The translations under genes were made by a program, and so were the position numbers. DNA of 64,000 bases from Escherichia coli (lineage in GTDB: Bacteria > Pseudomonadota > Gammaproteobacteria > Enterobacterales > Enterobacteriaceae): the NCBI RefSeq assembly GCF_003334255.1, contig NZ_QOWU01000002.1; one strand, 5' to 3'. A model generated the notes under the pieces. It searched no databases. It was not told the origin of the DNA and saw nothing but the letters and a program-made list of their open reading frames with translations. This document shows, in pieces, positions 1-8,674 of the stretch (its first letter is position 1; every line of letters begins with the position of its first letter).

Positions 1-449
1 GGTGGGATTTTTTTGTTCAGCTTGATGTAGCCTTCGAACTGGCTGATTGCAGTACGCACCAGCACTTCCTGTTCCCGCTCATCAATGGTCGGCGACTCCA
101 GATACTCCGCCTTCGCAGAAAAGTGTTCGCCATTGTCAGAGAGCGCAGAAATACGCGCGCGCTGTAACCCCTCGACCAGCACTTTGACGGTGCCGTCAGG
201 CAGTTTCAGCATCTGCAATATAGAGGCCACGGTCCCGACGGTGAAAAGATCGTTTACACCCGGCTCATCCGTTGAAGCTTCTTTCTGCGCGACCAGCATA
301 ATTTTTTTATCATGGTCCATCGCCGCTTCCAGACAACGGATAGATTTTTCCCGCCCGACAAATAAGGGGATGACCATGTGCGGATAAACCACCACATCGC
401 GCAGCGGCAATACGGGGATTTCAATGCGTTCAGAACGCTCAGGATTCAT
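1..449 (-). CDS. lon: Lon protease, N-terminal ~149 codons only; gene continues beyond window start
   Basis: Reverse complement of 421-449 reads ATG AAT CCT GAG CGT TCT GAA CGC (MNPERSER), the Lon N-terminus; frame stays open to position 1; absent from ORF track because open-ended. Confidence 0.92.
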   Translation of the reverse strand, partial: MNPERSERIEIPVLPLRDVVVYPHMVIPLFVGREKSIRCLEAAMDHDKKIMLVAQKEASTDEPGVNDLFTVGTVASILQMLKLPDGTVKVLVEGLQRARISALSDNGEHFSAKAEYLESPTIDEREQEVLVRTAISQFEGYIKLNKKIP

Positions 450-532
450 AGAGCTCTCTCTTAGTTTAATTTCCGCCAGGTAATCAGATGACACGACTGT
501 GCTTCACGCCATCTATTAACATGTACGTCAGT

Positions 533-560
533 ATATGGGGATGTTTCCCCCACATTCAAC
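533..560 (-). promoter_or_regulatory. Candidate sigma-32 (heat-shock) promoter of lon
   Basis: On the lon sense strand GTTGAAT-13 nt-CCCCATAT, matching the sigma-32 consensus CTTGAAA / CCCCATnT, about 80 nt upstream of the lon ATG. Confidence 0.5.
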
Positions 561-574
561 GCCGAGAATAGAGG

Positions 575-608
575 AAAAATTAAAGGGGAGATAAAATCCC
601 CCCTTTTT
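575..608 (-). terminator. Intrinsic terminator downstream of clpX
   Basis: GC-rich hairpin (AAAGGGGGG...CTCCCCTTT on the sense strand) followed by a T-run, about 30 nt after the clpX stop. Confidence 0.6.
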
Positions 609-636
609 GGTTAACTAATTGTATGGGAATGGTTAA

Positions 637-1911
637 TTATTCACCAGATGCCTGTTGCGCTTCCGGCTTGCCATAAATCAGCAACGGTTTGCTTTGACCA
701 TCAATTACCGACTCGTCGATAACCACTTTTTCGACGTCTTCCATGGACGGCAGATCGTACATGGTATCGAGCAGTGCGGCTTCTACGATGGAACGCAGGC
801 CACGGGCACCGGTTTTACGCGCCATCGCTTTCTTAGCGATAGCATCCAGCGCCTCGTCACGGAATTCCAGATCCACGCCTTCCAGATTAAACAGCGCCTG
901 ATACTGCTTGGTCAGGGCGTTTTTCGGCTCTTTGAGGATCTGAATCAGAGCTTCTTCGCTCAGTTCATTCAACGTTGCGACAACCGGCAGACGACCAATA
1001 AACTCAGGGATAAGACCAAACTTGATCAGATCTTCCGGTTCAACCTGCGCCAGCAGCTCGCCTTCGCTTGCTTTGTCGGACTTCGCTTTTACCGTCGCGC
1101 CAAAACCAATGCCGGAGCCGGTTTCTACACGGTGGGAAATCACTTTATCCAGACCGGCAAACGCACCGCCACAAATAAACAGGATCTTAGAGGTATCAAC
1201 CTGCAAGAATTCCTGCTGCGGATGTTTACGCCCACCTTGCGGTGGAACAGCAGCTACCGTACCTTCGATCAGTTTCAACAGTGCCTGCTGTACGCCTTCA
1301 CCGGAAACGTCTCGGGTAATGGACGGGTTGTCTGACTTACGAGAAATCTTGTCGATTTCATCGATGTAGACAATACCACGCTGTGCTTTCTGGACATCGT
1401 AGTCGCATTTCTGCAACAGCTTCTGAATGATGTTTTCAACGTCTTCACCCACATAACCGGCTTCGGTCAGTGTAGTCGCGTCGGCCATGGTGAACGGAAC
1501 ATCCAGCAGGCGCGCCAGCGTTTCAGCCAGCAGCGTTTTACCGGAACCGGTCGGACCGATCAGCAGAATGTTACTTTTGCCCAACTCGACGCCATTGCTG
1601 GTATCGCCGTTGCGCAGACGTTTGTAATGGTTGTATACCGCGACCGCCAGCACTTTTTTCGCCTGTTCCTGGCCGATAACGTAATCGTCCAGGTGGTTGC
1701 GAATTTCATGCGGCGTCGGTAGCGCACTGCGTTCACGATGCGGTGCAACTTCTTTAATCTCTTCGCGAATGATGTCGTTACATAAATCAACACATTCGTC
1801 GCAGATATACACGGATGGACCGGCAATCAGCTTGCGCACTTCATGCTGGCTTTTGCCGCAAAAAGAGCAATACAGCAATTTGCCTGAGCCATCTTTGCGT
1901 TTATCTGTCAT
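637..1911 (-). CDS. clpX: ATP-dependent Clp protease ATP-binding subunit ClpX
   Basis: 424-aa track ORF; N-terminal zinc-binding CSFCGK...CDEC motif, Walker A GPTGSGKT; length equals E. coli ClpX. Confidence 0.97.
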
Positions 1912-2036
1912 GGGTCAAAACCTCTTCTTTGTTCTTTGTGCCGCACACGACGACGCAAATGCCATTCTCAGGCGCAAGCCGCTTACAGCGTTGTGCCGCC
2001 CTGGATAAGTATAGCGGCACAGTTGCGCCTCTGGCA

Positions 2037-2660
2037 TCAATTACGATGGGTCAGAATCGAATCGACCAGACCGTATTCCACCGCTTCAGGGGCGGAAAGG
2101 AAGCGATCGCGCTCGGTATCACGTTCAATCTGTTCTAATGATTGACCCGTATGAAGCGCCATAAGTTCATTCATGCGCCCTTTAACTTTCAGAATTTCAC
2201 GGGCATGAATTTCGATATCGGTCGCCTGGCCCTGGTAGCCGCCCAACGGTTGGTGAATCATCACGCGCGAATTCGGCAGGCAAAAACGTTTACCTTTTGC
2301 CCCTGCGGTCAGCAAGAAAGCGCCCATCGAGGCCGCCTGGCCCATACAGATGGTGCTGACATCAGGCTTGATAAACTGCATGGTGTCATAGATAGACATC
2401 CCGGCAGTGATCACCCCGCCTGGGGAGTTAATGTACAGATAGATATCTTTTTCTGGGTTTTCCGCTTCCAGGAACAGCATCTGCGCCACAATCAGGTTAG
2501 CCATGTGGTCTTCAACCTGGCCAGTCAGAAAAATGACGCGTTCCTTAAGTAGACGAGAATAGATATCAAAAGAGCGCTCACCGCGTGAGGTCTGTTCAAT
2601 GACCATCGGCACCAGCGCCATATGGGGTGCAAAGTTATCTCGTTCGCCGCTGTATGACAT
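2037..2660 (-). CDS. clpP: ATP-dependent Clp protease proteolytic subunit ClpP
   Basis: 207-aa track ORF beginning [23 protein letters not shown]; ClpP serine protease family; immediately upstream of clpX as in the clpPX operon. Confidence 0.97.
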
Positions 2661-2738
2661 TTCCGTCTCCTGGATAAAATTGAAAAAACCTGCTGTACCG
2701 ATTGTAACCTTATGGACGGATTATCAGCTAGTCCCTGT

Positions 2739-2768
2739 GTTATGGGTACGGCATCACCATATTTCAAG
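2739..2768 (-). promoter_or_regulatory. Candidate sigma-32 (heat-shock) promoter of clpP
   Basis: On the clpP sense strand CTTGAAA-15 nt-CCCATAAC, about 80 nt upstream of the clpP ATG. Confidence 0.45.
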
Positions 2769-2840
2769 CATAACAATCTTTTGTTGTTACGCTAACACCG
2801 AAAGAGGCTTTTCGCACGGTTCCATGCAAAATTCATGACA

Positions 2841-2873
2841 AAAAAAAGCCCACCACCTGGCGGTGACGGGCCT
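2841..2873 (-). terminator. Intrinsic terminator downstream of tig
   Basis: Imperfect GC-rich hairpin (GCCCGTCACC...GGTGGTGGGC on the sense strand) followed by a run of 7-8 T. Confidence 0.5.
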
Positions 2874-2905
2874 TTGTGCGAATTTAGCGCGTTATGCTGC
2901 GTAAA

Positions 2906-4213
<1,308 letters not shown>

Positions 4214-4461
4214 TCAAAAAATCACAGTGCTCGGTCAACTCTTACCCCGCAAGCACAGGTTGTTGGCTTCGCGGAACCGGGATGTTCTTATAATCAATCA
4301 CATTCCCTGTTACCAGAATCATCCCGAAAGCATTCAAATAGGACGCGGCATTATAGCGGCATCACTTTTATGAGTCGAGAACGGTTATTGCGCGCTGTCG
4401 CGTATTTTTTCACAATTCCCGGGCAATTTTCGTCTGAATGCTGGGCAAAAAGCGCAAAATC

Positions 4462-4492
4462 CAGACAAAACAAAACGGCCCGCAGGCCGTTT
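4462..4492 (-). terminator. Hairpin terminator downstream of bolA (A-run/T-run flanked, potentially bidirectional)
   Basis: ACGGCC-CGCA-GGCCGT perfect stem flanked by A-rich and T-rich tracts. Confidence 0.5.
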
Positions 4493-4547
4493 TTCATAAA
4501 AACTTTAGCAACATACTGGAAAAGCGCCGACAGTTGCAAATGCGTTT

Positions 4548-4865
4548 TTACGCGATGCTTCCTGCTCCACGACAGGGAGGAGAGGCAAAGACGGTGTCCT
4601 GCAACCCTTCCCACTCCTTAATAGTGTAAGTATGCAGAGCCAGCGCATGAACGGTAGTAGAGAGTTCCTCCGCTAAAGTACTGTAAATCATTCGATGACG
4701 ATTCAGAAAACGTTCACCCGTAAAACGATCGCTGACCAGCACAACTTTAAAATGGCTTTCAGAGCCGGCTGGGACATTGTGACGATAGCTTTCATCCACT
4801 ACTTCGAGGAATACGGGTTGGAACGCCGCCCTTAATTTTTCTTCTATCCGCTCACGTATCATCAT
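4548..4865 (-). CDS. bolA: Transcriptional regulator BolA
   Basis: Track ORF 4548-4898 trimmed by 11 codons to the ATG giving [15 protein letters not shown] (105 aa, BolA length). Confidence 0.9.
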
Positions 4866-5169
4866 GAAATATCTCCTCCGACAACGCTGAGATGTCATCC
4901 ATCCCTTTAAATACTAGCCGCTTTTACCGTTTCCATTGCAGCTTAACAACAAATATTTAGGTTTCGTCCTGGTTTTTCCGTCAAGCGTATGAAGTTTACT
5001 GATTTAAAGATTGAAACACAGGCCTCGCATCAGTGTTTCTTTTACCAGGGGCGATTATTTCGTCAACATGATGAATTTACATGCCTTACCCACTTCCCCT
5101 CGCCGTTGGCAATGTTATGATGGCGGGAATTTTTACCAAACACGCTTAAGAGTCTCTGAGAGCCCGAAC

Positions 5170-5791: not shown

Positions 5792-7267
5792 ATGTCCAGT
5801 CAATATTTACGTATTTTTCAACAGCCGCGTTCAGCCATATTGCTGATCCTGGGTTTTGCTTCCGGGCTACCGCTCGCCCTGACATCCGGTACCTTACAGG
5901 CCTGGATGACGGTCGAGAATATTGATCTCAAAACCATTGGTTTCTTCTCTCTGGTAGGCCAGGCTTACGTTTTTAAATTCCTCTGGTCACCGCTGATGGA
6001 CCGCTACACGCCTCCATTTTTTGGGCGGCGACGCGGTTGGCTGCTCGCCACGCAAATCCTGTTATTAGTCGCCATTGCGGCGATGGGTTTTCTCGAACCA
6101 GGCACCCAACTCCGCTGGATGGCGGCGCTGGCGGTGGTGATCGCTTTTTGCTCTGCCTCCCAGGATATTGTCTTCGATGCGTGGAAAACCGATGTGCTCC
6201 CGGCAGAAGAACGTGGTGCGGGCGCGGCAATCAGCGTTCTGGGTTACCGTTTAGGGATGCTGGTTTCCGGCGGCCTAGCCCTGTGGCTGGCAGATAAATG
6301 GCTGGGCTGGCAGGGCATGTACTGGTTGATGGCGGCGCTGTTGATCCCCTGTATTATCGCGACGTTGCTTGCACCAGAACCGACCGACACCATTCCTGTG
6401 CCAAAAACGCTGGAACAAGCGGTTGTTGCACCTCTGCGAGATTTCTTTGGTCGCAATAATGCCTGGCTTATTTTGCTTCTTATCGTGCTGTATAAGCTGG
6501 GCGACGCATTCGCCATGAGCCTGACAACCACGTTTTTGATTCGCGGCGTCGGGTTTGATGCGGGTGAAGTAGGCGTGGTTAACAAAACGCTTGGCTTACT
6601 AGCGACCATTGTTGGCGCATTGTACGGTGGGATTTTGATGCAGCGCCTGTCACTGTTCCGGGCACTGCTGATTTTCGGCATTTTACAAGGTGCGTCTAAC
6701 GCCGGTTACTGGCTGCTGTCGATTACTGATAAGCATCTCTACAGCATGGGCGCAGCCGTCTTTTTCGAAAACCTCTGTGGCGGGATGGGCACATCAGCCT
6801 TTGTCGCGCTGTTAATGACGCTATGTAATAAGTCATTTTCCGCTACTCAATTTGCCCTGCTCTCAGCGCTTTCTGCTGTAGGGCGAGTTTATGTCGGCCC
6901 CGTGGCGGGTTGGTTTGTTGAAGCACACGGCTGGTCGACATTCTATCTATTCTCCGTCGCCGCTGCCGTACCAGGGCTTATTTTGCTGCTGGTTTGCCGC
7001 CAGACGCTTGAATATACACGAGTAAATGACAACTTTATCTCCCGTACCGCATATCCGGCAGGTTATGCCTTTGCCATGTGGACACTGGCGGCGGGCGTCA
7101 GCCTGTTGGCCGTGTGGTTACTGCTATTGACGATGGACGCGCTGGATTTGACGCACTTCTCTTTCCTGCCTGCTCTGCTGGAAGTCGGGGTTTTAGTCGC
7201 CCTTTCTGGCGTCGTGCTTGGTGGTTTGCTGGATTATCTGGCGCTACGAAAAACGCATCTGACGTAA
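5792..7267 (+). CDS. ampG: Anhydromuropeptide permease AmpG (MFS)
   Basis: 491-aa track ORF, multi-pass hydrophobic MFS-like protein beginning MSSQYLRIFQQPRSAILLILGFASGLPLAL. Confidence 0.95.
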   Translation: MSSQYLRIFQQPRSAILLILGFASGLPLALTSGTLQAWMTVENIDLKTIGFFSLVGQAYVFKFLWSPLMDRYTPPFFGRRRGWLLATQILLLVAIAAMGFLEPGTQLRWMAALAVVIAFCSASQDIVFDAWKTDVLPAEERGAGAAISVLGYRLGMLVSGGLALWLADKWLGWQGMYWLMAALLIPCIIATLLAPEPTDTIPVPKTLEQAVVAPLRDFFGRNNAWLILLLIVLYKLGDAFAMSLTTTFLIRGVGFDAGEVGVVNKTLGLLATIVGALYGGILMQRLSLFRALLIFGILQGASNAGYWLLSITDKHLYSMGAAVFFENLCGGMGTSAFVALLMTLCNKSFSATQFALLSALSAVGRVYVGPVAGWFVEAHGWSTFYLFSVAAAVPGLILLLVCRQTLEYTRVNDNFISRTAYPAGYAFAMWTLAAGVSLLAVWLLLLTMDALDLTHFSFLPALLEVGVLVALSGVVLGGLLDYLALRKTHLT

Positions 7268-7723
7268 TCTGTAAATATTATTTAGCTGTAGTAATCACTC
7301 GCCGTAATTATTACGGCTAAATAAACATCAGTATCGCTTATTAATATTTGTTCTTTTGTGCGGCTTAGCGTTTGGAAATTATTGGCGCCATTTATAAATT
7401 CTATTTTTCTTACACGATTCAGCTAATGAGTCTTTATTTTCTCATCACCCAGTTGTCACTCTAATGATAATTATTTGTTAAATAATTGTTTTATTTCACA
7501 TTGGTTATACCAATTGCCCGCCCAGACTCCTTCAGCACTCCCCTTTTGTTATAACGCCCTTTTGCAACAGCTTCTTAAAATCAACCTGATATGTTTTGCA
7601 ACATATGTGACCTGGCAGCCAAATCCAAGTAACAGGAATTTAATCATGTTTACAGTAATGTAACCTTCCCGTAAAATGCCCACACACTTTAAACGCCACC
7701 AGATCCCGTGGAATTGAGGTCGT

Positions 7724-8674
<951 letters not shown>

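Follow-up and report, generated by a model that had tools for sequence, protein, structure and literature searches.

Two short stretches within the first 3 kb of a 64-kb window of Escherichia coli DNA (the window being the whole 64,000-nt stretch that was analyzed, with w denoting a position in it) raise the question of whether lon and clpP, which encode two proteases, are each preceded by a promoter for the heat-shock factor sigma-32. At low temperature, sigma-32 is short-lived and present in small amounts; it increases on heat shock or when unfolded protein builds up, and targets promoters of the CTTGAA/CCCCATNT type. The first 3 kb of the window are 100% identical to E. coli K-12 and are found in 5,425 of 5,426 complete E. 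coli genomes. On the minus strand, this part of the window encodes tig, clpP (ATG at w2660..2658), clpX, and the start of lon (ATG at w449..447). Window positions convert to the K-12 chromosome as NC_000913.3 = 459337 − w, with NC_000913.2 coordinates 776 lower, and all conversions were confirmed by locating the published 51-nt start sequences in the window. The NC_000913.3 annotation holds no promoter or sRNA feature at the clpP and lon sites. Our analysis indicates that these sites are, very probably, the heat-shock promoters from which sigma-32 (RpoH) drives lon and the clpP-clpX operon.

An earlier note, made from the sequence alone, had placed sigma-32-type motifs at 533-560 (lon) and 2739-2768 (clpP), about 80 nt upstream of the start codons. 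Read directly on the minus strand, both motifs lie exactly where they had been placed, and the distances from −10 element to ATG are 83 nt for lon and 78 nt for clpP. The features of the lon site are as follows.

w560..554, minus strand: lon −35 element GTTGAAT, read directly; its TTGAAT doubles as a sigma-70-like −35 element.
w553..541, minus strand: lon spacer GTGGGGGAAACAT, 13 nt, read directly.
w540..533, minus strand: lon sigma-32 −10 element CCCCATAT, read directly.
w530..535, minus strand: overlapping sigma-70-like −10 element TATACT, 18 nt from TTGAAT.
w522..524, minus strand: lon transcription starts, w524 (stationary phase, glutamine, heat) and w522 (exponential phase), from Cho 2014 Table S4 and Kim 2012 Table S1.

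The lon −10 element agrees with the consensus CCCCATNT at 7/7 positions. Its −35 element keeps the TTGAA core whole, and canonical promoters are equally varied around this core (hslV GTTGAAA, rlmE ATTGAAA). The resemblance to the consensus that had been claimed for clpP also stands, but the −10 element is better placed one base upstream, as ACCCATAA behind a 14-nt spacer, than as the original CCCATAAC (w2746..2739) behind a 15-nt spacer. With this correction, the features upstream of clpP are these.

w2768..2762, minus strand: clpP sigma-32 −35 element CTTGAAA, read directly, 7/7 against the consensus.
w2747..2740, minus strand: clpP sigma-32 −10 element ACCCATAA, placed by matrix and consensus alignment.
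w2732, minus strand: clpP sigma-32-type start (Cho 2014 Table S4, 455829), giving a 72-nt 5' UTR.
w2760..2795, minus strand: upstream sigma-70-type clpP promoter, consisting of TTAGCG (w2795..2790), 17 nt that include TGT, TATGCT (w2772..2767), and a start at w2760.

The clpP −10 element matches CCCCATNT at 5/7 positions, and its two mismatches make it comparable to the −10 elements of ibpA (ACCCATTT) and htpX (ACCCATAC). The leader that follows it varies in length: E. coli and Citrobacter have 79-80 nt between the −10 element and the ATG versus 123-179 nt in the other Enterobacterales sampled, and the 5' UTR of these two (window 2661-2739 in E. coli) is ~45-90 nt shorter than those of Enterobacter, Klebsiella, Yersinia, Rahnella, Pectobacterium, and others. 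The shorter leader in E. coli and Citrobacter points to a leader indel.

How often would such motifs occur by chance? With both strands of the window scanned, the pattern TTGAA-N12-17-CCCAT is present twice, exactly at the clpP and lon sites (0.87 expected), and the stricter TTGAA-N12-17-CCCCAT is present once (0.19 expected). A plain consensus count over the window (CTTGAAA-N12-15-CCCCATNT, at least 12 of the 14 specified bases) yielded four distinct sites, where dinucleotide shuffles would give 2.0, which is not significant. Because this plain count is not above chance, we made a weight matrix from nine canonical MG1655 sigma-32 promoters (dnaK P1, htpG, clpB, grpE, rlmE, ibpA, hslV, groS, and htpX), with lon and clpP excluded. 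A tenth training promoter, that of yrfG-hslR-hslO, was dropped, as no convincing site was present within 250 nt of the yrfG start. Scoring with a sigma-32 matrix had been proposed as a check on the motifs, and over all window positions and both strands it ranks clpP first (20.15 bits) and lon second (19.44 bits), with the third site at 14.96 bits. Leave-one-out scores of the training promoters span 14.5-23.9 bits, a range that takes in both sites, and the shuffles predict only 0.03 sites per window at the clpP score and 0.10 at the lon score. The spacers of 13 nt (lon) and 14 nt (clpP), counted between the 7-mer and the 8-mer, are the lengths found in eight of the nine canonical promoters. When account is taken of strand and location, along with the weight of each base position, the two sites are beyond chance.

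The third-ranked site offers a test of the matrix itself.

w24826..24868, minus strand: third sigma-32-type promoter, absent from the earlier note, CTTGAGA-14-CCCCAATT, located in the 3' end of ribD with ribE ~150 nt downstream (14.96 bits).

Cho 2014 (PMC3923258) mapped primary 5' ends in exponential phase (E), stationary phase (S), glutamine (G), and heat shock (H), and sigma-factor binding by ChIP-chip. Their data place the sigma-32 region SigH_43 at the ribD/ribE site, together with starts assigned to ribE-nusB-thiL-pgpA at w24832 (S, G) and w24826 (S, G, H), the former being the 8th base past CCCCAATT. The coincidence of this third-ranked site with a sigma-32 ChIP region and mapped starts validates the matrix.

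Mapped starts also lie just downstream of the two motifs under study. At lon, the Cho 2014 start 458037 (w524; 1744 reads; S, G, and H) is the 9th base past CCCCATAT, and the exponential-phase start 458039 (w522) of Kim 2012 (PMC3415461), 2 nt downstream of w524, is the 8th base past TATACT. At clpP, Cho 2014 lists the start 455829 (w2732; 1303 reads) in S and G only; it is the 8th base past ACCCATAA and the 7th past CCCATAAC. A second start, 455801 (w2760), lies 28 nt upstream of w2732 and was recorded with 3166 reads in all four conditions, including heat. Starts 6-9 nt past the −10 elements had been anticipated in the earlier note, and measured from its own −10 placements the published distances, 9 nt for lon and 7 nt for clpP, are within this range. 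As to heat-shock control, to which the note also refers, the lon start is heat-listed, and at clpP the heat-listed start is w2760 instead of w2732. Because Cho 2014 reports secondary starts only when they reach at least 40% of the strongest one, the lack of w2732 from the heat list does not mean that this start is unused in heat. A K. pneumoniae clpP start from Kim 2012 (33 reads) falls just within the E. coli-type coding region and is uninformative on the promoter.

Binding data point in the same direction. Table S2 of Cho 2014 (PMC3923258) places SigH_46 (455362-456349) over the clpP site and SigH_47 (457462-458642) over the lon site (NC_000913.2 coordinates), and sigma-70 regions overlap both sites, with SigD_180 at lon. 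Since the ChIP-chip regions span ~1 kb and the sigma-70 regions overlap them, sigma-32 occupancy is not resolved to the motifs. In the portion of the Shimada 2017 genomic SELEX tables available to us, the tig/clpP spacer appears only in the RpoS table, and neither clpP nor lon has a sigma-32 entry. The presumed direct sigma-32 dependence of w524 and w2732 is supported by secondary citation: PMC7279449 describes lon as sigma-32-dependent, and PMC2848208 places Lon and ClpP within the sigma-32 regulon, both as secondary statements.

To gain insights into the conservation of the two sites, we scanned representative genomes for ClpP, which gave 80 loci from Enterobacterales to beta-proteobacteria with clpP-clpX-lon synteny in nearly all. 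Across an unanchored alignment of 15 Enterobacterales, the 150 nt upstream of lon contain just three blocks that never vary: TTGAATG, CCCCATATA, and the ribosome-binding/start region. Of these, CCCCATATA is seen again in Vibrio, Aeromonas, Shewanella, Colwellia, and beta-proteobacteria. The sequence of the lon spacer is free to vary between genera while its length stays at 13 nt, as seen in 33 of the 34 strongest sites. A matrix site above the 95th percentile of background is present upstream of lon in 18/18 Enterobacterales and in 42 of 50 other gamma- and beta-proteobacterial loci. The arrangement xTTGAAx-13-CCCCATAT recurs in Vibrio, Aeromonas, Shewanella, Colwellia, and others, and beta-proteobacteria carry −10 variants such as CCCCACGT or CCCCATGT. 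A mapped lon start in K. pneumoniae lies downstream of the same motif, and in S. oneidensis, lon as well as clpP has a predicted sigma-32 site according to a review on Shewanella. At clpP, CTTGAAA and a CCCCA/ACCCA block are kept across Enterobacterales (16 of 18 loci above the 95th percentile), and the CCCA of the −10 element is invariant in a set of 14 Enterobacterales. Outside Enterobacterales, the clpP blocks were not found within 220 nt of clpP, where nine of 62 loci exceed the 95th percentile and none the 99th. Few promoter footprints are conserved as deeply across gamma- and beta-proteobacteria as that of the lon sigma-32 promoter, and that of clpP is restricted to Enterobacterales.

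A separate stretch of conservation is found in the final ~20 nt before the lon ATG (AACTAAGAGAGAGCTCTATG, window 450-472, minus strand), which are nearly invariant in 15 Enterobacterales and exceed what a ribosome-binding site needs.

The strongest challenge to the sigma-32 reading concerns clpP, the motif of which could be weak or minor if the heat response came mainly from the upstream sigma-70-type promoter or by other routes. That promoter, which is conserved in the Escherichia-Klebsiella clade, has the larger read count (3166 versus 1303) and the wider range of conditions, heat among them, and the sigma-32 −10 element ACCCATAA is imperfect. The canonical ibpA and htpX promoters likewise carry ACCCAT, however, and the clpP motif has the top matrix score in the window, is covered by a sigma-32 ChIP region, is kept across Enterobacterales, and leads to a start, w2732, with the exact geometry of dnaK P1. 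No CCCCAT-like element is present upstream of w2760, and the 40% threshold can hide a start that is used. We therefore regard a merely minor role for the clpP motif as improbable. The −10 element TATGCT of the upstream promoter and the sigma-32 −35 element have the bases CT in common, so the two holoenzymes would be expected to compete for overlapping DNA.

Two starts of clpX itself were noted in passing.

Window 2001-2037 and 2135-2168, minus strand: clpX start regions, from the Cho 2014 starts.

The start at w2001 (E, H) is downstream of ATGCCA-18-TATACT in the clpP-clpX spacer. The other clpX start, at w2135 (S, G, H), lies inside clpP, where the sigma-E region SigE_9 is recorded (Cho 2014, PMC3923258). 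It is preceded by GAACTT-17-TCAAT, which we take to resemble the sigma-E consensus.

For lon, the corresponding alternative is that the site works in essence as a housekeeping promoter for sigma-70 (TTGAAT-18-TATACT), its likeness to a sigma-32 promoter being incidental. A consensus scan does find this site, which matches 9/12 positions of the sigma-70 consensus; w522 is suitably spaced as the 8th base past TATACT, and SigD_180 covers the site. Sigma-70-like hits in the region are nevertheless not above chance (2 versus 2.7 expected), a sigma-32 ChIP region is present as well, and the S/G/H start behaves like that of dnaK P1. Sigma-70 has no need for the CCCC of CCCCATAT, yet this block never varies in Enterobacterales and is widely kept outside them. 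The CT of TATACT does vary, and TATACT as a whole is conserved less than CCCCATAT. An invariant CCCC is left unexplained by a purely sigma-70 reading, which we judge very unlikely. The better fit of w522 to TATACT and of w524 to CCCCATAT instead suggests dual sigma-32/sigma-70 use with a 2-nt shift. In addition to its sigma-32 role, then, the lon site is probably read by sigma-70, which would give the basal exponential-phase start w522.

Slightly less likely again is that the conserved blocks between clpX and lon represent the antisense sRNA SraA (RF02029) and not a promoter. The Rfam family sraA is the sole Rfam match in the 64-kb window (w521..616, plus strand) and, at 106.7 bits against a gathering score of 56, is over its threshold. 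The match is antisense to the lon promoter and the lon starts and overlaps them wholly, and an sRNA review places SraA between clpX and lon. Its predicted structure nonetheless behaves differently from that of a conserved RNA. Hairpin 1 has compensatory changes in 0/9 pairs over 15 genera; one of its sides, formed by the complements of the −10 and −35 elements, is invariant, and the other is free to change. The clpX terminator, as read on the plus strand, provides hairpin 2, the 3' hairpin of the model. The sraA model breaks down in Photorhabdus, Arsenophonus, Providencia, Budvicia, and 6/6 non-enteric loci tested, all of which still have the promoter blocks, and the Cho 2014 rows retrieved for the SraA interval include no minus-strand start. 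The lack of covariation, the narrower reach of the sraA model, the terminator hairpin, and the lack of a minus-strand start together argue that the conservation is of the promoter type and not of the RNA type. What the sraA family records may for the most part be the conservation of promoter and terminator and not an independent sRNA gene, and we flag it as an Rfam family that sits exactly on the lon promoter without covariation support. The clpX terminator hairpin (AAAGGGGGGATTTTATCTCCCCTTT, window 582-606) has a T-run on each strand and scores as a terminator both ways.

A natural disruption of the lon site provides functional evidence. In BL21(DE3), the clpX-lon interval contains a 1337-bp IS186/IS421 element bounded by terminal inverted repeats of 22 bp (6485-7821 of the BL21(DE3) locus).

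w538..550, no strand assigned: 13-bp target GGGGAAACATCCC, duplicated by IS186/IS421 in BL21(DE3).

The duplicated GGGGAAACATCCC takes in most of the lon spacer and runs into the −10 element as far as its third C, and the insertion moves the lon −35 element ~1.35 kb from an intact CCCCATAT. At the left junction, CATCCC|ATAAGC creates a pseudo −10 element, CCCATAAG, behind the intact −35 element and pointing into the IS. E. coli B strains are Lon-deficient through this insertion, according to saiSree 2001 as relayed in PMC7377907 and PMC3045373. The position of IS186 between the −35 and −10 elements in the Lon-deficient B lineage identifies the site as the functional lon promoter. This promoter is itself the hot spot at which IS186/IS421 inserts. 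Approximately 55 of the 5,425 complete E. coli genomes do not have an intact w430-660. The alternative that the clpP and lon motifs are functionless chance matches, as the ~2 consensus matches (12/14) per 64 kb in shuffles might suggest, is hardly credible in view of the matrix ranks, the sense-strand positions upstream of two heat-shock genes, the conservation, the mapped starts, the ChIP regions, and this natural IS186 knockout.

The lon spacer also carries a lineage-specific feature. Among the sampled genera, the five-G run in GTGGGGGAAACAT is found in E. coli only; the spacer is GTGTGGGAAACAT in Enterobacter and Citrobacter and GTGTGGAATACAT in K. pneumoniae. The G-run/C-run palindrome targeted by IS186 thus appears to have arisen recently, through a change of one base. 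An identical IS junction, at w550, is present in NZ_CP137697.1 (a 128.8-kb record labeled as plasmid pEcFELIX533.1), where positions 1-5121 hold ybdK, hokE, an IS421-family transposase, and full-length lon. This lon segment is either a chromosomal piece mobilized or recombined via IS186 or an assembly artefact.

In the mechanism that we propose, sigma-32 RNA polymerase would recognize a CTTGAA-like −35 element and a CCCCATNT-like −10 element 13-14 nt apart and would begin transcription 7-9 nt downstream of the latter, at w524 for lon and w2732 for clpP. A rise in sigma-32, be it through heat, unfolded protein, or stationary phase, would then raise transcription of Lon and ClpP. Neither promoter would act alone, given the overlapping sigma-70 reading at lon and the stronger extended −10 promoter 28 nt upstream at clpP. 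We tentatively extend this model to a three-way overlap at lon, in which 28 bp might serve both sigma-32 and sigma-70 (with starts 2 nt apart), an Escherichia-specific G5...C4 spacer palindrome might be the IS186 target through which Lon is switched off in one step, and sraA might be largely a by-product of promoter and terminator; the companion feature at clpP would be the two bases common to a sigma-70 −10 and a sigma-32 −35 element, for which the holoenzymes would compete.

As a discovery, these sites carry little weight, since the starts and the sigma-32 occupancy were already in public datasets. Their value is that of a positive control, in that two real alternative-sigma promoters were recognized from sequence alone, without tools.

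The lon and clpP promoters are already known, both genes are textbook members of the heat-shock regulon, and no observation made here sets them apart from the known family. The heat-shock promoter of E. coli lon was described in the 1980s and is reportedly entered as a sigma-32 promoter in RegulonDB/EcoCyc. Kroh and Simon reportedly showed in 1990 that ClpP is the heat-shock protein F21.5. The window has the same sequence as the known lon promoter, with no difference: the starts 458037/458039 (NC_000913.2) carry GTTGAAT-13-CCCCATAT in −50..+1. The known clpP sigma-32 promoter is likewise the same locus with no sequence difference, its start 455829 having CTTGAAA-14-ACCCATAA upstream. Promoters common to sigma-70 and sigma-32 are said to have been described by Wade et al. 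in 2006. The two sites resemble this class in that ChIP regions of both factors coincide at lon and clpP and that the −10 elements at lon overlap; overlap between sigma-factor binding regions in general is reported in Cho 2014 (PMC3923258).

The closest point of comparison is dnaK P1, the reference sigma-32 promoter with which the structure of the sigma-32 open complex was obtained (PMC10216364), in which a CTTGA-type −35 element, a 13-14 nt spacer, and a CCCCATNT −10 element are used, all of them features of lon and clpP as well. Its start is the 8th base past its −10 element CCCCATTT and is recorded in S, G, and H (Cho 2014, PMC3923258), as is the lon start. The lon promoter differs from dnaK P1 in having G in place of C at the first −35 base and a start one base further downstream. 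In clpP, the first base of the −10 element is A instead of C, the last is A instead of T, and the spacer is one base longer. Overall, in the numbering of PMC10216364, the A of CCCAT is at −12 in lon, whereas in clpP it is at −11, exactly as in dnaK P1.
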